A stretch of DNA of 64,000 nucleotides from Bacilli bacterium (GCA_900770645.1 CAAGKY010000102.1:1053-65052), one strand, 5' to 3'. Numbered from the stretch's first letter, positions 4,930 to 47,077 are shown. A program made the numbers and translations. The notes: generated from the letters alone by a model not told the origin.

Positions 4930-7455
4930 ATGATAGATTTTAAAGATTTTAAGATAAAGCGTGGTCCTGCTAAAGATCTTCATAGTCCGAGACTTATCGT
5001 AGAAGAAGGATATTGATATCTAAGTACTGATTCTGCTGAGTTATTTATTGGTATTGTAGTAGATGGTATACCACAATTAAAACCAATTAATGATACTTTA
5101 TTTGAGGCTAAACTAGCAAATTATGCTACAGTAGATTTTGTAAGAGAGGCTTTAGAGAGTATCGATATTCCAGAAATTAGTGTAGACGATTTTGCGACAA
5201 AAGAAGAATTAAATAATAAGGCTGATACTAGTTATGTAGATGAAAAAGTAGCTAATATTGTTAGTTCTGAAGGACTTGCAACAGAAGAATGAGTAAAAAA
5301 ACAAAACTACTTAACTGAGCATATAGATATTTCTGGAAAACAAGATATTATTGATGATCTAGAAGAGCTTAGAATTGGTGCAGCTTTAGGTAAAACTGCT
5401 CTTCAAGAAATTCCTACTGATTATGCTAAGAAGGACGACTTATTTAATAAAGATTACAATGAGTTAATTAATAAGCCTGAAGGATTAGCGACAGAGTCTT
5501 TTGTATTAGAAAAAATAGCTGAAGCTGAAATTGGTGAGAAAGAAATAGATCTATCAGTTTATGCTAAAAAAGAAGATCTATTCAGTAAAGACTATTATGA
5601 CTTAGAAAATAGACCAGATATTCCAGAAGCTTACGATGACAAAGAAGTTCGTAATTTAATTGCGAATAAAGCTGAAAGTTCATATGTAGACGAAAAAATT
5701 TTAGAGATTAATAGTAAAATCGATACCTTAGAGTCACATGAGCCATACGATGACTCTGAGTTACGTGAACTACTCAACGGAAAGTCCGACAAAGATCATA
5801 AGCATGACGAATACATTCAAGATTTATCTCATTTAGCTACAAAAGAAGAGTTATCTAACTATATAACTGAAGATATTTTAAATTCTAAAGGTTATATTAC
5901 AGACGTATCTGAAAAGCAAGATATAATTGAAGATTTAAGTGAAATCAGAGCAAATGCAGAATTAGGTAAAACTGCCTTACAAGCTATTCCTGAAGAGTTT
6001 ATTACAGAATCTGAATTAGAAGCTAAAGGATATTTAACAGATCATCAAAGTTTAGATAATTATTATAATAAAACAGAAGTTGACAATTTAATTAATAGTA
6101 TAGAATTGACTCCTGGTCAAAATGGTATTGATGGAAAAGACGGAGAAAAAGGTGAACAAGGTGAAGCTGGTAAATCGGCTTATCAAATCTGATTAGATCT
6201 AGGAAATACTGGAACTGAGCAAAATTTTATTGATTCACTTAAAGGCGAACAGGGAATCCAAGGTATCCAAGGTGAACCTGGAGTTCAAGGAGAAAAAGGT
6301 GAACGTGGAGAGCAAGGTCTTCAGGGGCCACAAGGTGAATCTGGTAAAGACGGATTAACTACAGCAGTTAAAGTTGGAACAACTACTTATACTCACGAAA
6401 ATGGCGTTATTAATCTTCCTAATTTTGTTGATAGTGATTATGTGACAGAGTATGTAGGCTCTGAACTTGACGATAGAGTTACCACAATAGGTAGTCAAAT
6501 AGCTGCTAATTATGCTACTAAGACATATGTTGATGATGCTATTAATAATGCATTAACTCCAGATAACCTTCCAGATGTGTTACCTGATGTATTACCTGAA
6601 GTTATTCCTACTGCTGTAACTTTAAAAGATTTACAAATTGGCGAAACCTTTACTACAGACGTGACAGTTGGTAAGTTAGAAGCTGGTACAGAGATTAAAT
6701 CAGAAATGACTTTTGGCGAATTATTAAAAGCTGTTTTCGGAGTTAGATGTAATCATGATTGACAAGAAGCAACATGTACTGAACCTAAGACTTGTAAACT
6801 TTGTGGAACTACCGAAGGAGTAGCATTAGGACACAATCCGTTACCAGCGGTAGAAGAAAATAGAGTTGAACCAACAACTACTTCAGTAGGAAGCTATGAA
6901 TCAGTAGTTTACTGTAATAGATGTGATGAAGAACTAAGTCGTGAAACTATTGAAATTCCAATGTTAGCACCTGAAGAACCAGAAATTCCAGAAGGATTAA
7001 TTGGTGATATTATAACAAATAAACGTGAAATGTATGTAGTTAACCACGACGGTTCATTGGAAGCAATTCCGTTTGAAATAAACATTTTATCTGAAGAGCA
7101 AGCAGCACAAGAACCTAATAGATCTGGTTTTTACCAAGTAGTTACAAATGAAGGTAATACTTTAGAAGCTGGCTATCATGATTTATCAGTATTAAATCCA
7201 GAATGAGTTTATATGGTAGTACTTCCTAAAGAAGTAAAAGCAGAAAATATTAGTGTACAAACTTTCTCAGATGAAGATCAAATTTGAGAAGATAGTACAT
7301 TCGAACTTACCAATGATGTAGATATTGTTGCTGACATTTGTGATATTTATGAAATGGATATAAGTGCTATAAATCCAGAAACACACACTGTATGAGTATC
7401 AGTGACTGAGCAACTTTGTACAGGAAGTAAAATAAGATATATAATAACAGACTAA
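4930..7455 (+). CDS. tail fibre protein with a collagen-like G-X-Y domain
   Basis: Single frame of about 841 codons interrupted only by TGA. Contains GQNGIDGKDGEKGEQGEAGKSAYQIW(tga)LDLGNTGTEQNFIDSLKGEQGIQGIQGEPGVQGEKGERGEQGLQGPQGESGKDG. N-terminal motif (KRGPAKDLHSPRLIVEEGYW) is shared with the other fibre genes here. Confidence 0.8.
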
Positions 7456-7476
7456 TGTAAAGGAGCTAAATAATTT

Positions 7477-7902
7477 ATGGCGGTAATGAAAAAAGATCAA
7501 TTATTGTATATTGGGCGTGGTCCATTAGATTCTAGATCGCTAGTCACTAGATATGATGACCTTTTTAAGGATACTACATGAGTAAAAAGTGTAAAAGCAG
7601 ATGATGGCACTACTCAAAACATTTGTGTTGCACATAATGGTATGATTGTAGCTGTTTGACGTAATACTACTGATACCACTAAAAATGGTATTTATTTCTT
7701 ACACGATCCAAATGTAGTAAAAACAACAGTAGACCCAGACTATAAGAATGAAGCAAACTGACATCGCTTAGATAAAAATGATGGCAGTGACATTAGTGAA
7801 GTAATTTCAAGACTCGCAGCTCTTGAAGAAAGCTTTGAAGAACATGCAGAAAGTGCTCCGCAAATCACTAAGATTTGTGGAGGAACCGCTTTCGGTGAAT
7901 AG
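7477..7902 (+). CDS. small structural protein with the shared fibre N-terminal motif
   Basis: AAGGAG RBS. Three in-frame TGAs. N-terminus LLYIGRGPLDSRSLVTRYDDLFKDTTW matches the anchor motif. Confidence 0.5.
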
Positions 7903-7968
7903 TGGTTTTATTCTAGTAATTCTAGATAAAATATATAAAAAGATAAATTTATAAAGGAGAAAGACTAA

Positions 7969-9036
7969 ATGGCACAAACTATTAATACAATTATTGTGTT
8001 AAGAAATGACCAAACAACTAACTGAGAAATCTCCTCTTATGTTATGCTTAAAGGTGAAGTTGGTATTGGTTATTTAAAAAATGGTAATGTTATTGCTAAG
8101 TTAGGTAATGGTGTCGATACTTGGAAAGACCTTCCTCAAATCGAAGGTGTATTCGAAGACGACGTAACATTAACTTATAACTTTGGTAAATACACTATCG
8201 ATTCAACAGTTGGTTATGTAAACGCTGGTGGTAAGGGTATGACTACTTCAGAATGGCTAATTGATGCCTTATCAGTAATTCAAGACCCAAATATTACTCA
8301 ACCTGAATGTTCATTATCAGCTTCTTGCACTGGTTCTGGAGCAGAAATTGGTTCAAAAATTACTAAGATCAATTGGGACGGAAATACAACTTTTGGAGAA
8401 TACGAATACGGTCCAGAAACTGGTTTAAGCGAAGCTAATAGAACTTGAACAATTTCTAATAATATTAATGATTTAACTTCTGAAGACGAAGATGGAAGTT
8501 TTGTAGTTGATATTCAATTAGATCAAGAAGCTAGTAAAACATATGCAGTGATTACTGGTAAATGCGTTTTAGACGCTTCAGAAGCTGCTTATGCAAAAAA
8601 TAATGTTGGTGCAACAACTACTTTACGCGTAAGTGGTTTAGATATTACTAAGACCGCTAATGCTACTGCTACAGCTTATAGAAAACCTTTCTGAGGCGTT
8701 CTTACTCCTGAAAGCGTAATTGATGTTGAAAACTTAACAAGTGAAATTATTAGAGGATTACCACAAAGTGGAACTTCAACAAAAGGTTTACCAAAATCTA
8801 TTTCAGTTCCAGCAGGAACTCAAATGGTAATCTTTGCTGCAAAAGCTGGTGCTTATAGCTCATTAACTGCTACAGATGATAAAGCTATGAATGCAACAGT
8901 AGGATTTACAAAAGTAGCTGATGCAGTTCAAGTTAAAGGTGCTAATGACTTTACTGCAACAGCCTACGATATTTGGTATGTTGACTGGCAAGCTGGTATT
9001 GGTTCAGCTAAACAATTAACATTAAAATGGGCATAA
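7969..9036 (+). CDS. fibre or baseplate-like structural protein (shared N-terminal motif)
   Basis: AAGGAG RBS. TGAs at conserved W (RNDQTTNW-EISSYVMLKGEVGIGY...KLGNGVDTWKDLP). One frame through 8448 and 8700 to TAA at 9034. Confidence 0.6.
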
Positions 9037-9058
9037 TTAAGAAAGGGGACAAAAGATA

Positions 9059-11572
9059 ATGGCAAAAAATTATACAGAAATTCTTGCTTTAGCTAACAAG
9101 AATAACATAGGCTTATCTAATACTATTAAACGTGACTATGGTATTCCTCTAGATTATAGCTCTGTTCAAGAAAGTTATGAAAAAGCTTTAGAGTATGCAC
9201 AATCAAGTACACTTGCATACATTGGTCAACCAATTTCAGTTGGTGACGTTCTTTATGTAGTTACTACTCCAGAAAATGGATACTTAAAACAAGTTGGTGT
9301 TAAACCAGTTGGTGATGAAAAATCAATTGAAGTATCTGAAGAAGGTGTTGTATCTATTTATGGTTTTGAAGCTGCAGGCGACGCAACACTTCCTAGAAAG
9401 AATTCAGACGGTTCAATTTCTTGGATTACATTAGCTGATATTGCAGGTTCTACTGATACAAATACTAAAACAGTTGTTGCAGTTGCAGAAGATTCTGATA
9501 TTACTGTAAATTATTCTTACGATGAAGAAACTGATACTAGAACATATACATTAGATGTTCAATTCCCTGCAATTCCTGAGTATTCTGTTGAAAAAGTAGA
9601 AGGTGAAAATGAAGTTACTTACAAAGTAACAAAAGATGGTGTTCAAGTTGGTGAATCAATTGTAGTTCCTAACGCATTCGACCCATCTGAAATTTTAGAA
9701 TCAATTGAAACATTACAAGGTTACTTTACTGAAGGTGAAGCTAACGTTGCAGTTGAAGCTAAGGGGTATGTTGAAGGTGCAGCTATCGATTTAGAATTCA
9801 AACGTTTAGCTGGTTTAATTAGCGGTTTAGCTGGTGTAGACACAGATTTTACTAAAGAATTAGAAGAGTTAGAAAATAGCTTTAAAGCCTTCATGGAAGG
9901 AAACGGTGTAGAAGATGTTATCGATACATTAGCGGATATCAAAGCTGCAATTGAAGCATTACAAGCTCATGCTACTGCTTATGAAGCAAAAGTTGATCAA
10001 AATATTGAAGACATTACTGCTATTAAAGGACGTTTAGATGTAGTTGAAGCTATTGAACATCATGAACATGAGAACAAAGCTGAATTAGACAAAATCGTTG
10101 AAGGTGATGTTGAAAAATGGAATAGCTTATATAACTATGACGATTCAGAAGTTAGGGGATTAATTGAACCAAAAGCAGACAAATCTTACGTTGATGAAGA
10201 ATTAGCTAAGAAAGTTGATGTTGAAGGCTATGTTGCTTATTCTCAAGAAGAAAAAGAAAAATTAGCTGGTTTAGAAAACTATAACGATTCTGAATTATCT
10301 GGTCGTGTATCTATAGTTGAAGGATATTTTGCTGAAGGTATTGCAAATGACACTGCTAAATTAGGTGGACAATTACCTGAATATTATGCTTCTAAAGCAT
10401 CTGTTGAAGAAGCAATTGCAGGTGTTCATAACCATGAAAATAAAGATATTTTAGATGGTATTTCTACTGCAGATATTGAAAACTGAAATGCTGCTGAACA
10501 AAATGCTAAATCTCATTCTGATAGCAAACTTAGTGAAGCTGTTAAAGCTTTAGAAGGAAAAATTACTGCAGAAAAAGAAAGAGCTGAAGGTATTGAAGCT
10601 GATTTTGAATCTAGAATCGGTGTATTAGAAGCTAAAGAACCTACTAAAGTTGAAGCTTCTGAAGAAAATGGAAACATTTTAGTTGATGGTCAAGAAGTTA
10701 AAGTTTATGATGATGCAGAATTAGTTGCTAGATTAGAAGTTGTTGAAGGTAAACCATTTGACACTTATGCTGTTAAATCTGAAGTTGAAGAAGCTTTAGC
10801 TGGTAAAGTAGATAATGCTACGCTAGATAGCTACTATACTAAAGGTCAAACAGAAACTAAGATTTCTAAAATGATTTCTGACATCAACGGTGGTGAGTCT
10901 GCTGGTGAAGTATTAAGTCAATTAAATTCTTATAAGACTTTAAATGACGAAAGAGTTGCTGCAGTAGAAGCAAAAGATACTGAACAAGATGCAGCAATTA
11001 AAGCTAATGCTGATGCTATCGAAGTATTAAATGGTTCAGGTGAAGGTTCAGTTGCTAAACAAGTTGCTGAAGCTATCGCTGAAGTTGTTGCAGAAGCTCC
11101 TGAAGCATTTGACACATTAAAAGAAATTGCTGATTATATCGCTGGTGATAAAACAAATGCTGCTGAATTATTAAATAAAGTAAATGCTAATACTGAAGCT
11201 ATTGCTGCTGAAGTTACACGTGCTGGAGAAAAAGAAGTTGAATTAGCTGGTTTAATTAGTGGTTTAGATGCTGCATATAAAGCTGCAGATGAATTATTAA
11301 TTGCTGAAGACGCTAGATTAGCTGGATTAATTGGTGCAAATGCTGAAGCTATCGCTGTATTAAACGGTGATGCTGAAGGTTCAGTTAATAAGAAAATTGC
11401 TGATGCAATTGCTGCAGTTCCTGCTGCTACAGCTAATACTTTAGGTTTAGTTAAACCTGGTGAAACAATGTCTATTGATGCTGAAGGCACAATCAATGTT
11501 GCTAAAGTTTCAACTGATATGTTAGAACAAGGTCTACAAGAATTAGTTCTTAATGGAGGTTCAGCTAAGTAA
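9059..11572 (+). CDS. long fibrous Ala/Glu-rich structural protein (about 837 aa) with internal repeats
   Basis: Single frame across TGA at 10484. Repeated LAGLISGL and NG(S/D)(G/A)EGSV(A/N)K(Q/K)(V/I)A(E/D)AIA motifs. Predicted coiled coil. Confidence 0.65.
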
Positions 11573-11626
11573 TTAGCTGTTCCTACCTATAAATATAAAT
11601 AGAATATTATAGGAGAAAATAAATAT

Positions 11627-13414
11627 ATGGCAGAAAAAATTCTTCAAACTAGAATTATTAACAAACATGACTCATATGAAGCTTGGAAAACGAGTTCATT
11701 AGTTTTAAAAGCTGGTGAAATTGCGTTAGCTTCTATTCCAACTGAAGTTAAAGACAATGACGGAGTAATCACTGTAAGACCAACTTATTTAATGAAAGTT
11801 GGTGATGGTGAAAAAACTTTCTCTCAATTAAATTGGTTATCAGCAACTGCTTCTGACGTTTATTCTTGGGCAAAAGTTGCAACTGCTGAACAAGTTTTAG
11901 TTAAAGCTGAAGGTGAAGCTACTGGTAAAGCTCTAAATGTTTGGTTCAAAGACTTAGTTGCAAAAGATTCTGCTCAACAAGCAGAGATCGCTGCATTACA
12001 AACAGCTATTGGTGGTAGTTCTGTTGCTAACGCTATTAAGGCAGCTATTGAAGCATTAGACGTTGCTGACGAAGCAGTTAATGGACAATTTGTAACAGCT
12101 GTAGCTGAAGCTGATGGAAAAATTTCAGTAAGTAGACGTGCATTAGCCGCTGAAGACATTCCAGCTTTAGGAATTGATAAGATTACTGGATTACAAGCAG
12201 CTTTAGACTTAAAAGCAACTATTGCATATGTTGATGCTGAAGTTAATGAATTAGATGCTAAAATTGCAGTTAACACTGGAGCTATCGGAACTGAAAAAGG
12301 TCGTGCAGAAGGTGCAGAAAAAGCTTTAGGTGAAAGAATTGATGGTGTTATTATTGATTATAAAGCTTATGCTGATCAAGCTGAATTAGACGCAATTGCT
12401 GCTGCTAAATCTTATACAGATGGTAGAGAAGCTGCTATTAAGACTGCTTATGAAGCTTACGCAGATCAAAAGAAAGCAGAAGCTCTTTCTTCAGTAGAAG
12501 ATGAAGCAACTGCTCGTGCGAATGCAGATAAAGATTTAGATGATCGTGTTAAAGTAGTTGAAAATTGGAAAGGTACTATTTCTAATGTAATGGACTTTGT
12601 TGGTGCTGTTGCTGCTTTACCTGAAAGTGTTGAAGGTTACCAAAAAGGTGATGTAATTGTTGTTACAGCTTCTGGAAAAGAGTATGTTAATGACGGTGTA
12701 AAATGGAACGAATTTGGTGTAGGTTCAGCTAATGAAGCTGCTATCTCTGGTTTACAAGGTAGAATGACTGCAGCTGAAGGAGAAATTAGCACATTAAAGA
12801 CTGGTGTAGCAGCTAATGTAGTTTCAATCGGACAAAATGCTACAAATATTGCTACAATTAATACATCTTTAGCAGAAGGTGGAGAAGTTAACAATTTAAT
12901 TAAAGCAGCTAAGAAAGCTGGTACTGATGCTCAAGCTGAAGTAGACGCATTAGAACAAGTTGTAGCAGCATTAAATTCTACTGTTGCATCTAATAAAACA
13001 GCTGCTGAAAACGCAGTAAAAGCTGAAAAAGAAGCTCGTGAAAGTGCAGATAACGAAATTAATATAACTTTAGGTACTCATACTGAAAATATTGCTAAAA
13101 ACGCTGGAGATATTAAAACTCAAGGTGAAGCAATTGATGCTTTAGAAGCAGAATTTGCAGCTGGTGGTAAAGTAAAAGTATTACAAGAACAAATGGCTGT
13201 TGTTCAAGGTAGTGGTGCTGGATCTATCGCTAAAGCATTATCTGATGCAAAAGCTTACACAGATTCTTTAGCTAATGGACAAGTTAATACTAATAAAGTT
13301 GCTATTGCTACTTTAGATCAAAGAATTGGTAAATATGACGGATTCTTTGGATTAGGTAATGATTCAGCTGGAGACTTCCCAGTATTAGTATTCGATTGCG
13401 GTGGAGCTGAATAG
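11627..13414 (+). CDS. tail fibre protein (shared N-terminal motif, Ala-rich shaft)
   Basis: N-terminus KHDSYEAWKTSSLVLKAGEIALAS...KVGDGEKTFSQLNWL matches the HylP-like fibre N-terminal motif. Ends at TAG. Confidence 0.65.
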   Translation: MAEKILQTRIINKHDSYEAWKTSSLVLKAGEIALASIPTEVKDNDGVITVRPTYLMKVGDGEKTFSQLNWLSATASDVYSWAKVATAEQVLVKAEGEATGKALNVWFKDLVAKDSAQQAEIAALQTAIGGSSVANAIKAAIEALDVADEAVNGQFVTAVAEADGKISVSRRALAAEDIPALGIDKITGLQAALDLKATIAYVDAEVNELDAKIAVNTGAIGTEKGRAEGAEKALGERIDGVIIDYKAYADQAELDAIAAAKSYTDGREAAIKTAYEAYADQKKAEALSSVEDEATARANADKDLDDRVKVVENWKGTISNVMDFVGAVAALPESVEGYQKGDVIVVTASGKEYVNDGVKWNEFGVGSANEAAISGLQGRMTAAEGEISTLKTGVAANVVSIGQNATNIATINTSLAEGGEVNNLIKAAKKAGTDAQAEVDALEQVVAALNSTVASNKTAAENAVKAEKEARESADNEINITLGTHTENIAKNAGDIKTQGEAIDALEAEFAAGGKVKVLQEQMAVVQGSGAGSIAKALSDAKAYTDSLANGQVNTNKVAIATLDQRIGKYDGFFGLGNDSAGDFPVLVFDCGGAE

Positions 13415-13436
13415 TAATTTATAATTAAAAAAAATA

Positions 13437-13469
13437 AAGAGTAGACTTATTTTGAGTCTACTCTTTTTA
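13437..13469 (+). terminator. rho-independent terminator
   Basis: Stem AAGAGTAGACT/AGTCTACTCTT followed by a T-run. Confidence 0.6.
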
Positions 13470-13545
13470 CTATAGGATTAAAAAATTTGCTAAATTATAC
13501 GAACAGCTTGTTTAAAAGCGTATTTTATAAAATAAGGAGTAACTT

Positions 13546-16500
13546 ATGCTAAAAATGATTGTACAACATCGCAGAGGTACGACTGCTGAATGAAAATTAT
13601 CTACAGTAATTCCACTAGAAGGTGAACTTTTAATCGAAGAAACAGTTTCTGATGGAATTAAACTTAAAATTGGTGATGGTAAATCAGGATTCTTAGGCTT
13701 ACCTTATATCACAGATTTACTATCTGATAAAATTACTGCCGCTGAAAAAGAATTGAAAAATGTACAAAGCACTGTTACTGATAATGAAGTTATTAGAAAA
13801 TTAAGAAAAGATTTATCTGACCTTGACACCGAAATTAATCTCTTAAATAGAGAACTAGTAAAAGTTCAAAAAAACGTTGGTGACAAGACTATTAACCCAG
13901 AAACAAACGAAATAACTTATTCTGGACTTCATGCACAATTACAGACAATTAGAAACAGTGTTAATATGTTATCAAATAGAATTAGTGGTTTTACATCTCT
14001 TGAAGAAGGTAGTGTGACAGGAGATGCTGAATTACTAGATATTAGACATGGATTTAACGGAATCGACTATTCGTCTGCTGGAGACGCTGTTAGAGCTATT
14101 GGAGACGAATTACAAGCTTTTAAAGATGCTCTTCCTAGTTTTATTCCTGATAATGCTGTTGATGGATTATCTTATGAGAATAATAAGTTATATCTAACTT
14201 CTCAAGGTATTCAAGTAGGTGACGCAGTAACAATTACAGGAGGTGGCGGCGGTGGCAGCACATCTAGTACAATTATCACTTTAAAGAATAATGAGGGAAC
14301 AACTTCTAATATGTCTGTTTCAAAAGGAACTAAAGTAGAAATTAGTTTTAATTTTAGTTCTATTGAAGAAGGCGTTCCTACAGGAGACGGCGTATATAAT
14401 TTAGAAGTAAACAGTAACCCAGTTGAAACAAATGTTCAACTTTCACAAGGTAATAAGACAATCGATTTAACTAAATATTTAAAAGCTGGAATGAATAGAG
14501 TAAAACTTACTTGTTTCGATTATACTGGTTCTTATAAAAGCTTAGCTTATACGATTAATTTAATAGAGTTATCTATTGATTCATCTTTTGGCCCAAATAT
14601 AAATGATATTACTATATTTGAAGCTGACAATGCGGATGAAAATTTTGTTAGCGTAAATTATAATTATACTACTTATGGACAAGTTACAAAAATTGCTCAT
14701 TTCATATTAGATGATCAAGAAATTACTAATGCAGAAGGAAAACCTCTAATTCAATCACTAGGGGCTGGTGAAAAATCTTCTTCTATTAAGTTTAAGATTT
14801 ACGGACATGGTTGCCATAAATTTCAAGTTTATCTTACAGCCACAGTGAATAATAAAACTATTGAGAGTAATAAATTAACTTATAATATTTTATGTAATTT
14901 ACCAGATCCTGAAGCTACTAGACATCCAGCGATGATCGATTCAGTTTTCGAGATTACTAAAGCGACTCAAGGAGATTTGTTAGAAATACCATACAGAGTA
15001 TATGACCCAAATACTGGTCAAGTAACTGTAAATCTATTAGTTGGATCTGGAACAAAAGATAATTATGTAATAGATGAAAAATTATCTAAAGAAGAATTTG
15101 TCGGTAGAACAAAGCAAAAATGACCGATAAAAAATTATCCTATTGGAAATACTGTATTTATTATTAAATGTGCTTATCAAGTATATAACGAAGAAGGTAT
15201 ATTAACAACATATTATGCAGAAAAAATTCATGAAGTATTTGTAGAAGCACTAGATATTCCAGTAGAAGCTGAAACAGCTAATTTACAACTTTGATTAAGT
15301 GCAAACGGAAGATCTAATGCTGAGCTTAATCCTGCAGTATGAGAATATACTCAAACTGTTGAAACTGCTAATGGAATAGAAGAATTAGATACTATTAGAA
15401 CAACTTTTTCTAACTTTAACTGAGTTAATAACGGATGACTTTCTGACGTTAATGGTGATACTTGTTTAAGATTAAATGGTGCCGCTAAGGCCGTAATTGA
15501 TATTAAACCATTTGAAAAGAACTTTGTTAATACAGGTAAAACTTTTGAATTTGATTTTGTAATTAGAGACGTAAATAATCGTGATAGTACTGTAATTAAC
15601 TGTTTTAGTGGAAATAGAGGCTTTAAAGCTACTGCTGACACTTTTACATTCAGAAGTGAATCTGTTCAAATGTCTTGTAACTATAAAGACGTAACATATT
15701 TAACAAAATTAAATGATAAAACTCAAAAAGAAGAGACTATAGAGCAACTTGAACGAACAAGAATTTCTATTACTATTGCTCCATCTAGTTTAATCGCAGA
15801 TAATGCACCAGATTTGAACACTTATTTTATCTCGATGTATATTAATGGTATTTTATCTAATTGTCAAAAATATGGTGGAATAGATGAAGGATTTACTCAA
15901 AGTAATCCAGTAAAAATTTCTTTAGGTTCAGAAGACTGTGGATTAGATTTATATAGTATACGTATATATGATAGTGCACTTTCTCATAAAGGAATTGTTG
16001 ATAATTATATTGCGGATAGTGCTAATGGTCCAGATAAAATAGATTTATATAGAGAAAATAATATTTATTACGCTGATTCTGAGTTATCAGATCAAATTTC
16101 ATATGAAAGTTTAAAAGGAAAAATTCCAATTGTCACTTTTACTGGTAGAATGCCAACATATAAAGGTGATAAAAAGACAAATTCTGTGCTAATGAAGTTC
16201 GAACATCCAGAACATCCAGAGCTAAATTTTGAAGAAGTATTAAAAGAAATAGACGTACAAGGTACTTCTTCTCAATTCTATGTTCGTAAAAACTGAAAAA
16301 CAAAACATTACGACAAGCATGCTCATATGAAAGGTGAGATTCCAACTAAGGTTTTCTGTTTAAAAGTTGACTACGCTGAAGCCACTGGTACTCATAATAC
16401 TCAAGCTGCAAATTTTGTAGAAACATTATATAATCGTTCTGAAGCTCTTTTACCACCACAAGAAAAAGATTCTAGAGTTCGTTCTACGATTACTGGTTTT

Positions 16501-19500
16501 CCATGCGTTATTTTTGAAAAAGAGACTGCTTCTTCTCGACCAGTTTTCTCAGCAAAAGCAAACTTTAACTTTGACAAAGGTTCTGAAGAGGCATTTGGTT
16601 TTACAGAAGATTATGATGTAGAATCTTGAGAATTTTGTAATAACACTTCAGGTGCATGTAATTTCTTAGAAAAAATTAATACCGAAGCTTGAGCAGCTGT
16701 TTATAGATTATCAGGTGCTACTGAGAATACGTCTATTACGATTACGGCTAATTCTCCTGAAGAGGCTGAAATTATTGCTCGTGAATTATTAGCTACGAAG
16801 TCTTCTGAAGATGCTCAATGAGTTAATGCTAAATATATTGGTGTACATCCTTATTGATTAACTGACTTTGAAGCTAGATATGCTCAAAATACTATGAAGT
16901 ATAGCGATGGTTCTACATTTAAATTTGATAAAGATGAAATGTTCTCTATTGATAGATTTAAAGAGATGCATGATTGAGTTTGTGATACCGCAACAGTTAT
17001 GTACGCTAAGCCAGAAGCTAAGGATGGCTACTGATGAGTAGGTAATAAAAATACTGGATTTGAAATTCTTACAGACGATGATGGAAATATAATTCAACCA
17101 GAGATTATTGAAGACGAAGCAACAAAATCTAAGAATTGATATATTAATGGAGTAGATTCAAAAATATCTAGTCTTGATATCGTTCCAATAAATGTATTCC
17201 CTTTACCTAAACCTGTGACTATTGGAACAGTTGAATATAGAGAAGATAACGTAGATTATCGTAGAGCAAAGTTCGTCAAAGAATTTACAAACTATTTTGA
17301 TGAACACTATGCAGCGGTTTATTATGTATATACTTTTGTCGCATTAATGACCGACCAAAGAGCCAAAAATATGTTCTTAACTTATTGAGGTGAGACTGGT
17401 AAATGATATCCATATTTCTATGATAATGATACTTCTTTTGGTATCAATAATGAAGGTGCTCTTGTTTTCGATTATTATCATGAAGATACTGATACATTAG
17501 ATGGTGCACTAGTTTACAATGGTCAAAATAGTGCATTATGAACAAACTTTAGAGAAAATTTCGAAGACCTAGTTTCTTCAACATATCAAAACTTAAGAAA
17601 TAATGGTAAATTAGATTACGAAAAATTTGTAGAGCAATTTATTAATTGTGGAGCTAAGAAGTGGTCTGCATCTATTTATAATGCTGACGCAGAATATAAA
17701 TATGTGTCTATGGCACGACCTGACAATTTAGGAAACTTTGATGCTGCAAACTTATATCAAGTTAAAGGTTCTGCTGAACAACATTTTAAATACTTTGTTG
17801 CAAATAGATTAAAGTATTGTGATAGTAAGTGAAACTGTGGTGACTACCCGGACGACAAGATTTTCTTACGTATTTATACTCCATCTACAGGTGATAATGC
17901 TATTTTAAATGAGCCAAAACAGATTGACGGATATTGATGGATTGATGGTGTAAACACTGGATACTTAGTTAATACAGATAGCAGTGATCAAATCATAATT
18001 CCAGAAATAAGTGAAAATAATACTTGGATTCTAAATAAAGGTTTAGAAGATCAAGAAATTGATACAGAGATAGAGGTTAGATACGGAAAAGTTGAATTAG
18101 CAGTGGCACCAAATGCTAATATTAGTTTAAAAACATTTTCAGATATGTATGCAGGTGTTAAATACAAAGCAAATGGTACGTTATTAAGAAAGAGAGTTAA
18201 GAAAAATGTAATGTTAACTGGAAAAGACGCATTTATTCCTCCAAAATCAGCTAACGGTTTATCTGAAGTATTTAATGATACTGAAACTGCGATTTATGGT
18301 GCGAGTGAAATTTCTTCTCTTGGAGACCTATCTGGACTTTATTGTGGTGTTATTGATGTTTCAAAAGCTACGAAGTTAACTGAACTAAAAATTGGTAACA
18401 GTACTACTGGTTATTTTAATGATAACTTTAGAGATATTCAATTAGGTAATAATAGATTATTGAAAAAAATTGATTTAACAAATTGTCGAGGTTTAGGAAT
18501 CGCTGGAAAAAGCCCTCAAAAATCTTTAAATGTATCAGGTTGTCCAAACATCGAAGAAATTTTGGTTAAGGGTACAAGTTTAGAATCAATTAACTTGCCA
18601 GCTTCTGGATATATTACAAAACTTGAATTACCAAATACTTTGACAGGTCTAAATATTAGAAATCAAATGTACTTAACAAATAGTGGTATTTTATTGGACG
18701 ATTATTCTAAACTTAAAAAATTACGTATTGAAAACTGTAAAAATATAGATACTTTAGCTCTTCTTAGAAATTGTATAGATAGTTCGAATAACTTTACAGT
18801 TGAACGAATCAAATTAACTGGAATAGATTGAACATTTGATGATCCTGAATTCTTATTATCACTTATGAGTATTAAAGGTATGGACGCAAATGGTTTAGAT
18901 ACTGATCATGTATATCTTGGCGGACATGTTCACATAAAAGAACTTACTGGAGCACAATATACTCGAATATTTGATTACTATAATACTTATCACACTAATG
19001 AATCACTTTTAAAAATTACTTTTGATCGTATGACATCTTATGTATCGTTCTATACTAACGTAAAAGATGGAAATGGAAACTATATTCCATTTACATTCTC
19101 AGATGGAACACCTTGAATCCAAGAAGTTACAAATACACTAAACGATAAAGGAGAAATTGTTCGTAATACGACTGATCCAACAAAAGTTCCTTATTTATAT
19201 GATGGAAAAGAGGAAAAATTACAAACTCCAACTCAAGAAAGCACTATTGAGTTTTCTTATGCATTTAATGGTTGAACACGTACGCCTAATGCTCCTGCTC
19301 AAGTAGATGCATTATTAGACGTTACAGGTGATCGATCTGTTTATAACGCATATGTAAAAACTATTAATAAGTATCCAGTTCAATTTTATACTTATGGTTG
19401 AGATGGTCCAGAGTTATTAAATACGGTTATGACTAATTATGGTGAAATTGCAGAGTATTCTGGTGATACAGCGTTACTGATTAAAGGTAATACTAGTGTA

Positions 19501-20871
19501 CCAGAACGATATGAATTTGTAGGATGATCGCCTGAACCATTAGTTAAGCCTACTACTTTTGATGAAGTTATTAAGACTTACGCTCAGTTTAACTTAGTCG
19601 ATCGAGATGAAGACGGAGATATTTCTGATGAGTGACATATTCCATTACTTGGTGATATTAATTACTCTATAGATGACACTTCAAAGAAGATGAATATTAC
19701 TGCTTACTATAATACTAGTGAACCATTAGTTTATATACCAGAATCTTATTTTATTGGAGACGAGGAATATTCTGTTTACGAGGTTGGTGGTTTTAACGCT
19801 ACAAATGTAGAACATGTTAAATTAGCTGAAGGAATAGAATCTATTTATGGACACCCAATAAATGGAGCATTTGCTGGTGCACAAAATTTAGTTGAAGTAG
19901 ATTTACCAGAAAGTTTGACTACGATTAAAGACAAAGCTTTTTCACAAACTCCTAGATTGACAGAATTATACATTCCAAAAAATGTACAAAGGATCGAAAG
20001 ATCAATTTTAGGTGAAGGTGGACATGTGAAAAATATTACCGTAGATAAAGATAATAAGATCTACGAAGCTATAGATGGATGTTTATTGGGACCTTATTCT
20101 TTATATTCTGCAAATGGAAAAGAGAATGAAAAGATAGTTCTTGCATGTAACACTAATGATGCTTTACCAGACTCTGTACAAGATAAAAATATTGTATGTA
20201 TAGGTACAGATGCATGTAGACAAAATCATTGTACCGAAATAACTATACCCAATACAGTTAAAATATTAGAAAACTTTGCTTTCTTTAGTTGTAAGAATCT
20301 TAAAAAAGTTAACTTATCTAGTAATGTTGAAGAATTTGGATCTGGAGCATTTGGATATTGTGAAAACTTAGAGTCTATCACTTTACCAGAGACTTTAGTT
20401 CAATTATCAAACCATGCGCTAGTTGGATCAAACCTTGAAGAAATTATTGTGCCAGCAAATGTAAAAAATATCTCAATCGAAGCCTTTAGTAAATGTAAAA
20501 ATCTTAAAAAGATTACTTTTATGGGTAAACCTGATAAGATTTCTTGGTCTATACTCGCAGATTCTGGTCATGAGGATGGCTTAGAGATCTATGTAGCTTG
20601 AAATAAAGAAGATAATCGCACGATTGGTGCTGGAGATACTGCCAAACTAGGTGACCCATATACTGCTATACCTTGTGCTTGAGGTGCAGGAGCGCCTATG
20701 CCACAAACACTTGATACAGAATCTGATTATGCCTATAACCGAGAAATTAAGCGTACTCGTAATGTAAAAATTATTTATAAAAATGGTGAAGAGCAATTAT
20801 TATTAGCAGGCGAAAAAGCTTGACCTGATTGATCAGCTATTTCAACATTTATAGATCGAGGAGACAATTAG
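13546..20871 (+). CDS. giant multidomain virion protein (about 2441 aa): fibre N-terminal motif, CotH kinase-like domain, LRR and BspA-type LRR
   Basis: I checked frame continuity across every junction; there is no in-frame TAA or TAG from 13546 to the TAG at 20869-20871. More than 20 in-frame TGAs. CotH-like DQRAKNMFLTYWGETGKW(tga)YPYFYDNDTSFG. LRR region 18100-18830. BspA-like LRR IPxxVxxIxxxAFxxCxxLxxI at 19690-20600. Confidence 0.7.
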
Positions 20872-20872
20872 T

Positions 20873-21565
20873 ATGTATAAAATAATTTATAATAACAAAG
20901 TTATTGAAGTAATTGAAAATCCAAAATTTATTCGATTTTTAGCTAAAGGTCATGTTGGTATTACTAGTAAGTCAGATGCGCAAGGAGTAATCAGTGAAAA
21001 TAGCTCTACTGTATATCGTTTTGATTATAGTGCTCAGACAACTAGAAAAAATATTCTTGATATTAAACTTGAAAGAATTTCAATAGAAGAATTTAGAAGA
21101 TTAGAACATCTTCTAAATTCTGGCAAACAGCCAGACGCAGACTTATCCGCACTATCTGTTGCAAAAAGAAATAAAATTTCAGCATTATCAGAAGAATGCA
21201 ATAGACAAATTATCTCAGGAATTAGCTTAGTCTTATCTGATAATCAGATACATCAATTTAAATTGACAATAGAAGACCAATTAAACATATTATTGTTAGA
21301 GAACCAATTAAACTCTGGTATAACTACGTTTGTTTATCATAGTACCGGTGAGCCTTGTAAAGTATTTAATAAAGAAGACATGTATAAAATTATTTCTTCT
21401 ACTAGATCTCATATTCAATATCACACAACATATTTTAATTTACTAAAGCAATATGTTAATACATTAGTTACTTCAGAAGAAGTTCAAAATATTTACTATG
21501 GAATAGACGTAGAAAAAATTTCTACTGATAAGACCATGAAGACATTTTTGCGAACTTTAAAATAG
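20873..21565 (+). CDS. hypothetical protein, possibly a fibre assembly or chaperone protein
   Basis: ATG overlaps the giant ORF's stop (TAGTATG). No TGA. Confidence 0.45.
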   Translation: MYKIIYNNKVIEVIENPKFIRFLAKGHVGITSKSDAQGVISENSSTVYRFDYSAQTTRKNILDIKLERISIEEFRRLEHLLNSGKQPDADLSALSVAKRNKISALSEECNRQIISGISLVLSDNQIHQFKLTIEDQLNILLLENQLNSGITTFVYHSTGEPCKVFNKEDMYKIISSTRSHIQYHTTYFNLLKQYVNTLVTSEEVQNIYYGIDVEKISTDKTMKTFLRTLK

Positions 21566-21603
21566 TTTGATAAATATTGTATAATATTAAGGAGATACAA
21601 GTT

Positions 21604-21861
21604 ATGGAAAATAAAACTAATATAATAGCACGTATTCAACAACTACATAATACTGAAGAAGTTTGAAGCTCAAGTAAATATTCAGAATTTATTCCAAGAG
21701 CAGGAGAACTTATTATTTTCGATGTGGACTCTACTCATAATTTTACTAGATTTAAATTTGGTGACGGTGTAACACCTTTAAAACATCTTCCATTTGCAAT
21801 AAATCCTATTGGTGAAGTATTAGAAGATGGGTCTATCAAAATAGACGCTGGAAGAGTCTAA
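21604..21861 (+). CDS. stand-alone fibre N-terminal-domain protein (85 aa)
   Basis: N-terminus IIARIQQLHNTEEVW(tga)SSSKYSEFIPRAGELIIF...KFGDGVTPLKHLPF. Consists of the shared anchor motif only. Confidence 0.5.
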
Positions 21862-21873
21862 TTATTCTGCAAT

Positions 21874-21915
21874 AAATAGGGTTTTAATTATTTTAAAGTT
21901 AAAGCCCTATTTATT
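21874..21915 (+). terminator. rho-independent terminator
   Basis: Stem AAATAGGG(T)TTT/AAAGCCCTATTT. Confidence 0.5.
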
Positions 21916-22018
21916 TGCTAAATTAAATGTAACAATTGAATATTTAGAATTAGTTTGGAATGATAACTAATTCTTGTATCGAAAAAATTTGGAAAAATAA
22001 TTTAAAGGAGATACTTAT

Positions 22019-22771
22019 ATGGCAGAACAACGCATTGATAGGATTCGAATTCAGATGAAGCGTGGATCTAGCTTAGATTGGCACAAAGCCAGTGAAGCTA
22101 CGACTCCATTTATTCCAAAAGAAGGAGAATCCATTTTTTATACTGACATGAACATGCTAAAAATTGGTAATGGGACAAGTACTCCAGACCAATTACCTTT
22201 TTTAGATGTTGAACATCCAGATGAAACTTTTAAAACTTTTGCAGTGTCAAATTATGACTGCGATAAATGTACAGAAGCTGGTGTGTATTTAATTTCTGGT
22301 GGAACTGATACGCCAGAAAGCTATGTTGGTGGAAATTTACTAGTAATTCCAAATACTGACTACATCACACAAATGTTATTTGTTCCAGGAAATGCTGCAA
22401 ACATTCGTGGTACAATGTTCTTTAGATACTACATTAATAAAATTTGGACAACTTGGGAACAAATCACAACATCTAAACATGTTCATCAAATTACTTTTAC
22501 TCCAACTGGAACAATTAGCTCTCCAGATATTATAGTGTCTGTTGAAACAGACGATGTAATAGGTAATTTTGTACCTGGATCTGGTAGTGCTAGTTTAGGA
22601 GTAGAAATTGATCACAAAAGATTATCTTTTGCGTTACAACATTCTCATGTAGCTTCAACTACTAGTACTAAAACAGTTCTTACTGCGGCTACTGCGAGAC
22701 TTAAGGATGCACCAGTATTTACTGGGACATCTACAACTATTGGCACAAATAATGCTATAGAAGAAAAATAA
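22019..22771 (+). CDS. fibre-like structural protein (shared N-terminal motif)
   Basis: N-terminus RIDRIRIQMKRGSSLDWHKASEATTPFIPKEGESIFY...KIGNGTSTPDQLPFL. Confidence 0.6.
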   Translation: MAEQRIDRIRIQMKRGSSLDWHKASEATTPFIPKEGESIFYTDMNMLKIGNGTSTPDQLPFLDVEHPDETFKTFAVSNYDCDKCTEAGVYLISGGTDTPESYVGGNLLVIPNTDYITQMLFVPGNAANIRGTMFFRYYINKIWTTWEQITTSKHVHQITFTPTGTISSPDIIVSVETDDVIGNFVPGSGSASLGVEIDHKRLSFALQHSHVASTTSTKTVLTAATARLKDAPVFTGTSTTIGTNNAIEEK

Positions 22772-22805: not shown

Positions 22806-24995
22806 ATGGCAACCGTTAAAACTGTTATTGATTCGTTATTTTACACCAATCCTGCTAATGGTGATGTAACAGAAGCGAACTTTACCTTACCTTTTGGTAC
22901 ATGTGAAACTGCTGCTGCTACTGCAGCTAAAGCTGTAACATGTGCGAACTTTGTAGCTTTAGAAACTGGAGCTTCAGTAGTAGTTAAATTTACTTATGCA
23001 AATACTGCTTCTTCAGCTACATTAAATGTTAATAGTACAGGTGCTAAAACTATTAAAACTTCAGACGGTCAAGCTTTATCTGGATCAAACTTAAGTCCAT
23101 GAAAAGCTGGCGATATCGTAAATTTTGTTTACGATGGTACTAATTGGCGTAGTTATGCTGCAATCACTAGAAAAGATTTAGTAGATGCAATTGCACAAAA
23201 TGACGCATTAACTTACAAAGGAACTATTCCTGTTAGTTCTACTGTAGATATTTTCCCAGAAACTTTCCCATTAGCTGTTAATCGTGGTTGAACTTATAAA
23301 GTTGCAGCTGCAGGATACTTAGGTTCAGTTAAAGTTGAAGCTGGTGATATGATCATTTTCAATACAGACTGTGATGGAACAAATACTAAAGCAAATTCAA
23401 CTACATACTTTGATGTAATTCAAGGTAATATGGATATGAAAGCTTTAGAGGATAAATTCTCAGAAGCTGATCATACTCACTCTTATTCTCATACTCATAA
23501 AGTATCTCATACTCCAGCTGGTACAAATGAGAATACTTCTATTACTCCAAAAGGTAGTGTTGTAAGTACTTTTAGTGGTAATACTGATACATTAACTGGA
23601 GCAGTTACAACTAAGTCTGCTGGTGGACATACACATACATTTACTGGTACTGCTGCAGAACATGACCATACTTTTGCTGGATCTGCTGCAACAATCTCTG
23701 TTAAAGGCACACCTACTGGATCTGTTTCTAGTACTTCAGTGACTCCAGATGGAAATATCACTGAAGTTACAGTTGACTCAACTCATACAGCAAACTATAC
23801 TCCAAAAGGAAGTATAACTGCAAGTTTCTCTGGAACTGAAGCAAGCCATAATCACTCATTTACTGGAACAAAAGCAACTTTATCAGTAGATTATACTCCT
23901 GAAGGTAACAATGCTGAAGTTACTTTAACTCCAGATGGTGTTAACTCAGCTGTATCACACTCTCATACATTAGATTTATCTGGTAGTTTTACAGGAATTG
24001 CTGCAACGATTACAAGTTCTGAAAAATTTGTTAAGTCTGGTTCTATTGGAAATGCTGGTGGTCATACTCCTACTGGTACTATCTCAAGTACTACAAATAT
24101 TCCTAGTGGAAAAACTGCAAACTACACTCCTGCTGGATATGTTCCTCAAACTAGTATTACTGTAGGATCTAATGATATAGTTTCAGCAGTAACAAGCGTA
24201 ACACACGGAGCTGGTTCACACGTACACAATCCTGCAACTTTAACAATGAGTGCTACAAGTAAAAAATTATCTATTACTTTTAGTGGAGGTTCTGGTTCAC
24301 ACTCTGATCCAACTGTATCTACAACTACAGATAACGTAATAGGTACAGCTACTACTTTCAACCTTCCAAAAACAAATCTTACAGGTACTCCAGCATACTT
24401 CACTTTTGCAGGTACAGCTGTAGCTGATCATACTCATACATTTAGTCCATCAACCGAAAATGTTTCTGCTAGTTATACTCCTACTGGTTCTGTATCTGTG
24501 TCTGGTACTGCATCGTCAGATTCTCATACACATACATTTACAGGAACTACTGCTGCGCATACTCATGCATTTACTGGTACTGAAGCTACTTTAAGTACTG
24601 AATATACTCCAGCTGGTTCTATTGGAAACAAAGCTATTACTCCTGCAGGTACAGTTAGTGCATCATTCTCTGGTACTGCAACTCATTTAGACTTTGTTGG
24701 TATTGCCGCATCTCATGATCATACATTTACTGGTTCAGAATTTACTTCTTCTGGTTCTTATACTCCTGCTGGTACAATTGCTAAGACTTCTATTACTCCT
24801 GCCGGAACTCTTGACACTCAAGGTAGTCATACTCATGATGCTACATTAGCTATGGATGGATATACTCCTTCTGGAACAGTTTCAAGTACATTTACAGGAA
24901 CAGCTGAAGAACATACTCATACATTTACTGGTACTGCTGCAACAATTACTACAACTGATCAATCTGCTACTACAACAAGTGCAGCAAATAAATAG
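22806..24995 (+). CDS. tail fibre with tandem His-x-His repeats (T4 gp37/gp12-like phage fibre repeat)
   Basis: One frame across TGAs at 23100 and 23289. About 14 repeats of GxHTHTFTGTAA/SHxHxFTGT. N-terminus GTCETAAATAAKAVTCANFVALETGA is shared with the 25161 gene. Confidence 0.7.
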
Positions 24996-25160: not shown

Positions 25161-27137
25161 ATGGCAAATAAAGTAATTGATTCCATGACATATGGAAGCG
25201 ATACGTATACGATTTCGACGCCTTATGGAACCTGCTCGACTGCTGCAGCAACAGCAGCTAAAACTGTAACATGTGCTAACTTCGTAGCATTAGAGACTGG
25301 AGCAAAAGTTACAGTACTTTTTACTTATGCTAACTCAGTTGCAAATCCTACTTTAAACGTAAATAGTACAGGTGCGAAATATATTTTATATAGAAATACT
25401 AAATTAGATACTTCAGCAGAATATTGAAAAGCAAATGATACACTTACTTTTGTATATGATTCTACTTGAAGTTCTAATACTGGTGCTTGAAGATTAGAAG
25501 GTCATTTAGATACTGATACAAATACTAACACAACTTATTCAGTAACTACTGGTGACAATAATGGTCAAATTAAAGTTGCACCTAGCGGTGGAACTGCTTA
25601 TAATGTGAATGTTAAAGGGTTAGGATCATCTGCTTTTGTACCTACTTATAAGGCAGCTGAATGCACATCTTACTCTTCAGATGATGGTAACTGTACACCT
25701 GCAGCTGTAAATAAAGCGATTACTCAAGGAATTTTTCCAGCTAACTCTACTGCTTATGGTACAATTAAAGTATCTTCTGTTAATTCTTCTGCAGTTACAG
25801 TAAATAATGAATCTTCAACTGCTGGAAGATATTATCCAATAGAATTAAATAGTGATGGAAAAGCTATTGTAAATGTTCCTTGGACAGATACTGACAATGA
25901 TACAACATACTCAGCTGGAACTGGACTAACTAAAACTTCAACTACTTTTAAAGCAAACTTAAGAAGTGAGACAAAATTAACTAATGATTCTGCTGCAGCT
26001 ACTGAAGTTGCTAATAGAGTTTATCCAGTAGCGGTAGATAAATCAGGGTACTTATCAGTAAACGTTCCTTGGGTAGATACTAATACTCACGACGGTAATG
26101 ATAATCAAAAAGTTAGTGCTGGAACTACAACTTTTGGTATAAATGATACTGTTAAGTTTGTTGCTGGTAGCAATGTTACGATTACGCCTGATGCAACAAA
26201 TAAAACAATTACAATTAGTTCAACTGATACTAATACGGACACTAACACATCTCATGATCACACTGCGGGCACAGGATTAATTATTAGTGGTAGTGGTGGA
26301 ACATCTGGTACGACAACATATTCAGCAAATCTTAACAGTACAACATCTTTAGGAACTATTGGAACCACATCTAAGCTTTATGCTGTTGGTGTAGATGCTA
26401 ATGGTAAATTATGTGTAAACGTTCCTTGGACAGATACTAATACTGATACTAATACTCATTACACAACAGGTTTATATGTTGGAGCTAGTAATGCAAAATC
26501 TAATGCAGCTACTTCTAATGGTGGAACATACTTAAAACTGTATGACGACAGTACAAAACGTGCTGAATTTAAAATTACTGGGTCTGGTGCGACTACAGTA
26601 ACTTCTGATTCAAGTGGTAATATTACTATTAGCTCAACAGATACAAACACAGATACTGGAGCTACTAGTGTAGAAGTTACTGGGTCAGGTAATGCAGTAA
26701 CTGCTGCTTCTTATGATGCGTCTTCTAGAAAAATAACTCTAACAAAAGGCACTACTTTTTTAACTTCACATCAAACAATGTATTATAGACCTATTCGAGT
26801 GAATGGTACTCAAATTTTAGCTAATACTTCAAGTACAGCTTTAAACTTAAAAGCTGGAACAAACGTGTCTATTAGTAATTCTAGTGGAACAGTGACAATT
26901 AGTGCAACTGATACTAATACATGGCGTGGTATCCAAGATAACTTGACTAGTACATCTACTACTGAGTCATTAAGTGCAAATCAAGGTAAAGTATTAAAAG
27001 GATTAATCGACGGAAAATCAGACTCTGGTCATACTCACACTTCAGTTAATGGTTATACTATTACTGTTTTATCTCAATCTTCTTGAAATAGTCTTTCTTC
27101 TAAATCGTCTTCGACAATATATTTTATAACTGCATAG
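25161..27137 (+). CDS. paralogous fibre protein with VNVPWTDTNT repeats
   Basis: Same N-terminus (GTCSTAAATAAKTVTCANFVALETGA). Repeats Y(P/A)V(A/G)VD..G.L.VNVPW(T/V)DT. One frame through five TGAs to TAG at 27135. Confidence 0.65.
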
Positions 27138-46902: not shown

Positions 46903-47005
46903 GTACTATTACTCTATGCCTAAGGTGAGATTATTTATTTAATCTGCTTCGTTCTAACAGTATTTTTGGACTGTAATCCTATTTGAGCCTTAATAGGTAA
47001 TTTAT

Positions 47006-47077
47006 GGATATTTAGTGTATGTGGTCAGCACATTAGCTTTATGCCGTGAAGAGTTGGTTCGAGTCCAACAATATCCA
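47006..47077 (+). tRNA. degenerate tRNA-like element (acceptor, D-arm and T-arm intact; no anticodon stem)
   Basis: Perfect acceptor GGATATT/AATATCC. D-stem GTGT/GCAC. T-arm GTTGG-TTCGAGT-CCAAC. Region 28-46 has no complementary 4-mers. Confidence 0.35.

Follow-up and report, generated by a model that had tools for sequence, protein, structure and literature searches.

A conserved anchor-only mini-protein in the tail-fibre module of a large phage reading TGA as tryptophan

A 64,000-nucleotide stretch of DNA from a Bacilli bacterium (GCA_900770645.1, CAAGKY010000102.1:1053-65052; the whole stretch is referred to as the window, and positions are counted from its first letter) carries at 4.9–28 kb the receptor-binding tail-fibre module of a large phage in which TGA stands for Trp. 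Five genes of this module, all on the + strand, begin with the same domain of about 60 residues, and one of them, at 21604..21861, encodes a protein of only 85 residues. One anchor common to several fibres is ordinary phage modularity, and nothing is new in the shared domain as such. What is new here is a family of anchor-only mini-proteins, a modestly novel conserved variant with a presumed function.

Genetic code and the shared N-terminal domain

The window is AT-rich (GC content 27–38%), and translation table 11 fragments the region 4930-22771 into short open reading frames (ORFs). When TGA was read as sense, the summed length of ORFs of at least 100 residues rose from 12,661 to 18,990 residues, and code 4 (TGA = Trp) produced a tight head-to-tail array of + strand genes. 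The preliminary description had placed the shared motif in at least seven ORFs, starting at 4930, 7477, 7969, 11627, 13546, 21604 and 22019. All seven ORFs exist, and their starts coincide exactly with those of the code-4 array, but only with TGA read as Trp.

TGA encodes Trp at this locus. The proof is internal, because a single Trp column of the motif, invariant in the five copies of the domain and in 31 outside homologues, is TGA in 7969 (8023-8025), 13546 (13591-13593) and 21604 (21664-21666), and TGG in 11627 and 22019. The earlier remark that the motif Trp is often specified by TGA was thus accurate for three of the five copies.

The first of the five proteins is a fibre-like protein of 355 residues (7969..9036) with the domain at residues ~1–57 (nucleotides 7969-8139) and its TGA-encoded Trp at position 19; its N-terminus matches phrog_19976 and its C-terminal part phrog_35541. 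It is followed by a 595-residue, Ala-rich, coiled-coil-like fibre (11627..13414), in which the domain occupies residues ~1–71 with an insertion. The third is a giant fibre of 2441 residues (13546..20871) with Mtd_N at residues 6–47, a long heptad-like stretch after the domain, seen by eye, and a C-terminal BspA-type leucine-rich repeat (LRR) region, LRR_5, at residues 2219–2336 (E 3e-37). The 85-residue mini-protein (21604..21861) has the domain at residues ~1–64, with Trp21 encoded by TGA, and a tail at residues ~65–85. The last is a 250-residue candidate for a small fibre or receptor-binding protein (RBP; 22019..22771, domain at residues ~1–62).

Judged by sequence comparison, the N-terminal family has five members in the window, not seven. 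Pairwise BLASTP among the five N-termini gave E values down to 3e-7, and in their alignment the columns W, GE, K.G.G and L are invariant, with the domain beginning at residue 1–10 in each protein. In a leave-one-out procedure, a profile of four sequences was searched against all 933 segments obtained by code-4 translation of the window in six frames. The fifth member was recovered with E = 7e-7 to 1e-10, the values by ORF being 7e-7 for 7969, 3e-8 for 11627 and 9e-8 for 22019, with a value above this range, 2e-6, for 21604; the best unrelated segment had E >= 0.09. No further copy of the domain was found elsewhere in the window with profiles of 5 or 50 sequences.

ORFs 4930 and 7477 gave no match at E <= 10 with either of these profiles. 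By hhalign, their N-termini scored probabilities of 0.1–0.4%, the level of five negative-control N-termini, while two HylP N-termini absent from the profile scored 97–98%. For the N-terminus of 4930 and for 7477, zero homologues were present in an index of 5.8 billion proteins or in IMG/VR, and neither ORF had sequence matches in the PDB. It may still be argued that all seven ORFs are paralogues and that 4930 and 7477 diverged past sequence detection, since by eye 4930 aligns gap-free to 13546 with RG, EG and DG in register, and a weak BLAST match links 22019 to 4930 (E 0.038 in a seven-sequence database). The control-level scores of both ORFs stand against this, as do the motif order, which is not kept in 7477, and the lack of homologues that could raise sensitivity; this reading is distinctly unlikely. 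That 4930 alone is a very divergent copy, an idea kept in view because of the RG/EG/DG register with 13546, is regarded as doubtful.

The five N-termini almost certainly represent the known Mtd_N/HylP-type domain, an identity that rests on sequence and predicted fold and from which a docking function may be deduced. The likeness to the N-terminal attachment domain of HylP, already suspected in the preliminary description, was borne out by a profile of the five sequences, which matched residues 1–56 of PDB entries 6x3m (E 4e-11) and 2c3f, HylP1 (E 8e-7). The same region was matched in 2yvv, 2dp5 and 3eka, and the hyaluronidase matches spanned E 4e-11 to 1e-5. In Pfam, the gathering score of Mtd_N (PF18454; 26.3 bits) was passed by 13546 (36.4 bits for the N-terminal fragment, 30.7 at full length) and by 22019 (28.2 bits). 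ORFs 7969, 11627 and 21604 had no Pfam match of their own at E <= 1 and are tied to Mtd_N through the leave-one-out profiles that link them with 13546 and 22019. Among 19 relatives of the 85-residue protein, eight matched Mtd_N, which was the sole Pfam family matched.

Structure prediction was in agreement. The AlphaFold monomer model of the 85-residue protein had a mean predicted local distance difference test score (pLDDT) of 72, with 76–90 over the domain. The nine best Foldseek matches of this model were all HylP-type hyaluronidase fibres (probability up to 0.99), and the superposition on the HylP N-terminus covered 59 columns with a root-mean-square deviation of 3.1–3.4 Å. An exhaustive HMMER search returned 5,547 protein clusters at E <= 1e-3, of which 3,464 were at E <= 1e-10. 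Among the best 150, the domain was always N-terminal (start at residue 1–23) in proteins of 84–1603 residues.

Mtd_N is listed among the N-terminal structural domains of RBPs (PMC9230537, Table 2), and the beta-prism of Mtd is presumed to attach Mtd to the tail fibre (PMC10743442). As in Mtd of Bordetella phage BPP-1, the domain is short and stands at the very start of an RBP; unlike Mtd, whose body is a beta-sandwich with a C-type lectin, the window proteins have distal parts of LRR, coiled-coil or unassigned type. No diversity-generating retroelement turned up in the window analyses, which included no search aimed at one. The hyaluronidase tail fibres of streptococcal prophages (HylP1 2c3f, HylP2 2dp5, 6x3m) provide the best sequence and fold matches and the same signature, R..W....L.GE....K.GDG....L., but their catalytic triple-stranded beta-helix, Hyaluronidase_1, had no Pfam match in any protein of the block. 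For this reason the window proteins are not members of the HylP family and have only the plug in common with it.

The 85-residue protein, its relatives and its gene junctions

The product of 21604-21861 had been described as the domain alone. This is correct for residues ~1–64, whereas residues ~65–85 are a distinct tail, which homologues also retain. In word-indexed and exhaustive searches, many proteins of 84–97 residues covered the 85-residue protein end to end at 40–56% identity, and orthologues with the same tail measured 87–90 residues (45–54% identity). About 20 distinct clusters, formed at 50% identity, of 84–97 residues were found among the best 150 of the 5,547 clusters.

Two types of tail were distinguished. 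Type a ends in '...IIDAGRVTDYKK', with the pattern ..[DC][AG]G[RNE][IV][ST].Y, and includes the window copy ('...IKIDAGRV'); type b reads '...ITxxEIDEICG...EVxF'. A profile of the tail matched small proteins only, with 21604 at E about 1e-6, and a position matrix derived solely from external tails scored the 21604 tail at 16.6, the runner-up position in the window reaching 9.3.

Three other readings of the small protein and its tail were considered and rejected. A truncated paralogue of 22019 had been suggested by a 'CDK..AG' resemblance seen by eye, but the tail profile misses 22019 and all long fibres. The small protein is also not a miniature giant that keeps both ends, as the tails are unlike the C-termini of the giants, which are themselves not conserved. 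A C-terminal end motif shared with 11627, 9059 and 7477 came from a post hoc regular expression and is too weak to build on, the external-tail matrix ranking the end of 11627 fifth of 16,472 positions and that of 9059 outside the top 15. Separately, the exhaustive search returned a long Mtd_N fibre of 777 residues (P0084) with the type-b motif '..IEDIDAICG..' about 40 residues from its C-terminus, and this motif may be a general docking or end element, not specific to small proteins.

The family occurs in phage contigs of 130–220 kb. By tblastn, type-a small proteins were absent from 50,697 deposited phage genomes, where a type-b query gave marginal matches only (E 0.2–0.8), and the type-a family was also absent from reference prokaryotic genomes (one genome for each of 185,579 species). 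Pfam and PHROG hold no dedicated model for the mini-proteins, members matching nothing but Mtd_N, as stated above, and phrog_19976 in its N-terminal part (8 of 19).

Compared with the contig L001 (94.6% identity), the 85-residue gene showed ten synonymous and two conservative codon changes (D/E and I/L), while the 230-residue gene upstream of it showed 24 synonymous and 15 non-synonymous changes. On account of the ten synonymous against two conservative changes, the 85-residue gene is under purifying selection. It is very probably functional and conserved.

Gene order around type-a genes was also conserved. A Mtd_N fibre of 600–770 residues is followed by a giant with Mtd_N and LRR (2180–2819 residues), a Tfa-like gene of about 230 residues and the small gene; this order was found in the window and in L003, L011, L012 (a 223-kb contig) and L014. 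In L005, where no Tfa-like gene is present, the small gene directly follows the giant. Orthologous giants of 2180–2819 residues occur in all five of these relatives, and orthologues of 11627 measure 591 residues in L005 (41% identity) and 657 residues, with Phage_fiber_2, in L003.

The Tfa-like gene of the window (20873..21565, + strand, TAG stop) directly follows the giant fibre gene and encodes a 230-residue candidate tail-fibre chaperone. Its C-terminus is DUF4376-like (E 9e-4, 20.1 bits, below the 25-bit cut-off), it matches phrog_1348 (E 1.4e-10), and its orthologues are 44–45% identical and syntenic in L003 and L011. In fibre chaperones of the Tfa type, DUF4376 forms the conserved C-terminal part, as was shown by experiment for V22 gp27, which is related to Mu Tfa (PMC7289586, PMC7882524). 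With Mu Tfa/U and V22 gp27 the product of 20873 shares its position directly after a fibre gene and these weak matches; it differs in remaining below the Pfam cut-off, and a third coupled small gene is not described in the Tfa literature cited here.

In four relatives, all of standard code (L003, L011, L012 and L014), the Tfa-like gene ends in a TGA that overlaps the ATG of the small gene (ATGA). Such an overlap is unusable in the window because TGA is sense, and the junction there consists of the TAG stop of 20873, a 38-nucleotide spacer and a promoter-like box. Recoding forced a rebuild of this junction. The locus provides a clean internal proof of TGA as Trp and also shows a side effect of recoding at a gene junction.

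The promoter-like box, TTGTATAATATT, lies on the + strand in this spacer at 21577..21588, upstream of the 85-residue gene, and is followed by AAGGAG. Thirteen copies occur in the window compared to 0.26 expected, all of them intergenic and in gene orientation; the copy at 21577 is the only one between 2219 and 25107 and is invariant in L001. Directly after the small gene, a long terminator-like hairpin with a stem of about 21 bp was found on the + strand (21869..21918). Its predicted RNA fold reached -22.8 kcal/mol (z = -5.6), and none of 200 shuffles was as stable. A second repeated box, TGCTAAATTAAATGTA, lies ahead of 22019 at 21916..21931 (+ strand). This 16-mer has three exact copies, at 21916, 36589 and 50712, just upstream of 22019, 36634 and 50751, and two of these genes are TGA-rich; it may represent a second (late?) class of promoter distinct from the 13-copy TTGTATWATATT box. 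A generic scan of the block for sigma-70 promoters and terminators gave no enrichment over shuffles, and only the specific repeated box was significant.

L003 is arranged like the window, with a similar hairpin after the small gene followed by 'TTTGCTAAATTA', whereas in L005, L008 and L009 a hairpin lies before the small gene instead. The small gene therefore sits at an operon boundary that is wired differently between genomes.

Possible roles of the 85-residue protein

The best explanation overall, held with moderate confidence, combines a shared plug with an 85-residue adaptor or stub. The domain forms the N-terminal cap in solved fibres and is presumed to fasten them to the virion or to another fibre. 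A shared plug would let differing distal parts use the same kind of socket, these parts here being the 2441-residue BspA-type LRR giant, the Ala-rich fibre and two small globular proteins. The 85-residue protein would trimerise as other fibres do and may occupy one socket as a headless stub, and its conserved tail would either cap the site or hold a partner without a plug of its own.

Taken separately, the assignment of the 85-residue protein as a structural adaptor or stub is tentative, with chances put slightly short of even. It is favoured for this type-a protein by analogy with type-b relatives. The type-b small gene is the first of an operon in L016 (a 175-kb contig) and in L009/L010. Its stop codon overlaps there (TAATG) with the start codon of a gene for an LRR_5 protein that has no anchor domain. 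An N-terminal peptide, '..NKSD..AIA[DN][AS]IRxKTG', is common to both LRR partners (42% identity over 36 residues, E 4e-5), and in L008 the motif AIADAIRGKTG heads the gene located two genes downstream of the small gene. The type-b pair resembles a fibre whose anchor and adhesin have been divided between two genes, and the coupling to anchor-less LRR adhesins suggests an adaptor role. A more specific proposal, possible but with odds against it, is that large uncultivated gut phages encode a separate Mtd_N-only plug of 84–97 residues whose tail recruits anchor-less adhesins, for example of the BspA LRR type, and that the window protein is a type-a split-fibre adaptor of this kind. If so, the receptor-binding and attachment parts would lie on two genes, and an adhesin could be swapped with the anchor left untouched. 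If the mini-proteins are adaptors, they would determine the way in which these phages carry giant or anchor-less adhesins, and they would offer a handle to predict or engineer host range in a phage group without a cultured member.

Several observations weigh against the plug-and-adaptor explanation. For the type-a tail of the window copy no partner was found, and the tail had pLDDT <50 in the monomer model. The downstream neighbour 22019 has an anchor of its own and occupies a slot that is variable between genomes. With the PDB searched at E <= 10, the local profile returned HylP chains only and no Mtd chain, the link to Mtd being made by the Pfam model. Finally, translational coupling in four relatives joins the type-a gene to the Tfa-like gene before it and not to a downstream fibre, an arrangement that would fit a role in assembly equally well.

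Such a role would make the small protein a non-virion assembly factor that works on the giant fibre together with the Tfa-like chaperone. It might, for instance, serve as a placeholder or a primer, either at the docking site or at the N-terminal trimer of the fibre, before being displaced. The ATGA overlap with the DUF4376-like gene in L003, L011, L012 and L014 points in this direction, as does the constant position of the small gene at the end of the giant-fibre unit, and some members weakly match phrog_19976, which is named 'tail assembly protein'. That match is confined to the N-domain of a 256-residue profile with a provisional name; moreover, the small gene is present in L005 although a Tfa-like gene is absent, and in the type-b relatives the coupling is to adhesins instead of chaperones. 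The assembly role is considered rather unlikely, though it deserves some weight. A slim chance is given to the idea that the mini-protein completes a heterotrimer by supplying extra anchor protomers, so that an adhesin that is bulky or monomeric could occupy a docking site of three-fold symmetry, the adhesin being the giant LRR fibre or, in type-b genomes, the separate LRR proteins. LRR solenoids are usually monomeric, the small gene constantly adjoins giant LRR fibres, and its own promoter-like box in the window would permit a different dosage. However, the heptad-like stretch of the giant, noted by eye, is typical of homotrimeric fibres, and a Tfa-type chaperone implies a trimeric C-terminus of the fibre (PMC7882524). 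The N-domain of the small protein, at 31% identity, is also no closer to that of the giant than to those of the other paralogues.

The remaining reading takes the gene for what is left of a truncated fibre gene in decay, or for a landing pad or exchange cassette used in recombination. It is very improbable and may be regarded as largely refuted. There is a precedent in Klebsiella podoviruses, whose truncated RBPs include the 69-residue second RBP of KpV767, read as a leftover docking site (PMC6872550), and the small gene does adjoin the variable fibre slot 22019. Purifying selection speaks against decay, and the length and tail of the protein are kept over many clusters at 40–56% identity, with a tail unrelated to 22019 or to the ends of the giants. 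The exchange cassette proposed in the preliminary description did not hold, as the N-terminal modules share at most 22 nucleotides at 91% DNA identity and the small gene is an old, selected and syntenic orthologue. For the decoy role also raised there, evidence pointed neither way.

Known multi-RBP phages offer partial parallels to the fibre block and its mini-protein, and their reuse of one N-terminal attachment element is well documented (PMC6872550, PMC9700779). The anchor-branch systems (Klebsiella Menlow and PhiK64-1 groups, phiKp24, G7C and CBA120) also have several RBP genes with a common N-terminal element, although that element consists of T4 gp10-like domains or short peptides there and of a full Mtd_N on five proteins here. 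The second RBP of KpV767 is likewise a protein reduced to its attachment element, and the gp37 adapter of K1-5/SP6 shows that adapters join anchor-less RBPs to the tail (PMC6872550). Truncations of the KpV767 type are sporadic and read as remnants, whereas the mini-protein family is old, diverse and selected, with its own tail and a fixed position.

Neighbouring genes and recoding

The two ORFs without a detectable copy of the domain lie at the start of the block. ORF 4930..7455 (+ strand) encodes an 841-residue collagen-repeat fibre (Collagen, 6.6e-10) that matches many tail-fibre PHROGs and whose N-terminus is not detectably related to the others, and 7477..7902 (+ strand) encodes the 141-residue orphan protein. 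The array also includes, on the + strand, 9059-11572 (837 residues), 22806-24995 (729 residues), 25161-27137 with phage fibre repeats, and 27148-28389 as the last of the listed genes. The 729-residue product of 22806-24995 is made of His-rich 'HTHTFTGTA / YTPxGT' repeats (families D2 and D3) and has no Pfam match. The slot of 22019 had no orthologue in the relatives, and only its N-domain matched other loci. Neither a megablast comparison of window positions 4–28 kb with phages nor an NCBIfam search gave a match.

A second mobile fibre module of about 90 residues, 'C[ST]TAAGTAAK...PTLNVNSTGAK...F.Y.G..W', is shared by 22806 and 25161 at 61% identity. Its sites in the window are approximately 22866-23150 and 25200-25475; the loci that carry it elsewhere are 14137-15192 in L005, 11690-13153 in L012, and 13008-17630 and 17651-18040 in L014. 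The module lies at the N-terminus in the window and in L005 and follows Mtd_N as an internal segment in L012 and L014; a 129-residue protein of L014 consists of little else. Mtd_N may therefore not be the only domain with an anchor-only form. The module, at the N-termini of 22806 and 25161, was also considered as a partner of the small protein and rejected, since genomes with fused forms also retain the small gene; the pattern of fusion and fission between the second module and Mtd_N proteins is nevertheless real.

In-frame TGA codons cluster in the fibre block, with 58 of 80 located in the genes of 4344-28389 and 30 in 13546 alone, while most non-structural genes of the window have none. Enrichment of recoding in late genes has been reported (bioRxiv 10.1101/2021.08.26.457843), and the concentration of TGA in the fibre block fits this pattern. 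Within the block, the fibres 11627 (0 TGA, 6 TGG) and 22019 (0 TGA, 3 TGG) are TGA-free and might be recent imports from standard-code relatives, an idea based on L003, L005 and L011, which use mostly TGG.

Twelve tRNA genes were found between 33854 and 50200, and among them lies a gene (43134-44123) for a class-I aminoacyl-tRNA synthetase of the Trp/Tyr type (tRNA-synt_1b, E 1e-71). None of the tRNAs of the window has a UCA anticodon, and the decoder of TGA must lie outside the window or be unconventional. At 47005-47079, the window encodes a tRNA-Ile with the anticodon TAT.

Relatives of one fibre module include standard, TGA-recoded and TAG-recoded genomes. L008 seems to read TAG as Gln, as 'IPK*GE' at its locus 10001-10312 (P0013) corresponds to 'IPKQGE' in the database protein. 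Other products of the window are a protein with a TROVE (Ro60-like) domain (34136-35794), a Mur-ligase-like protein (28389-29945) and, judged by eye, an SPFH/band-7-like protein (32738-33769).

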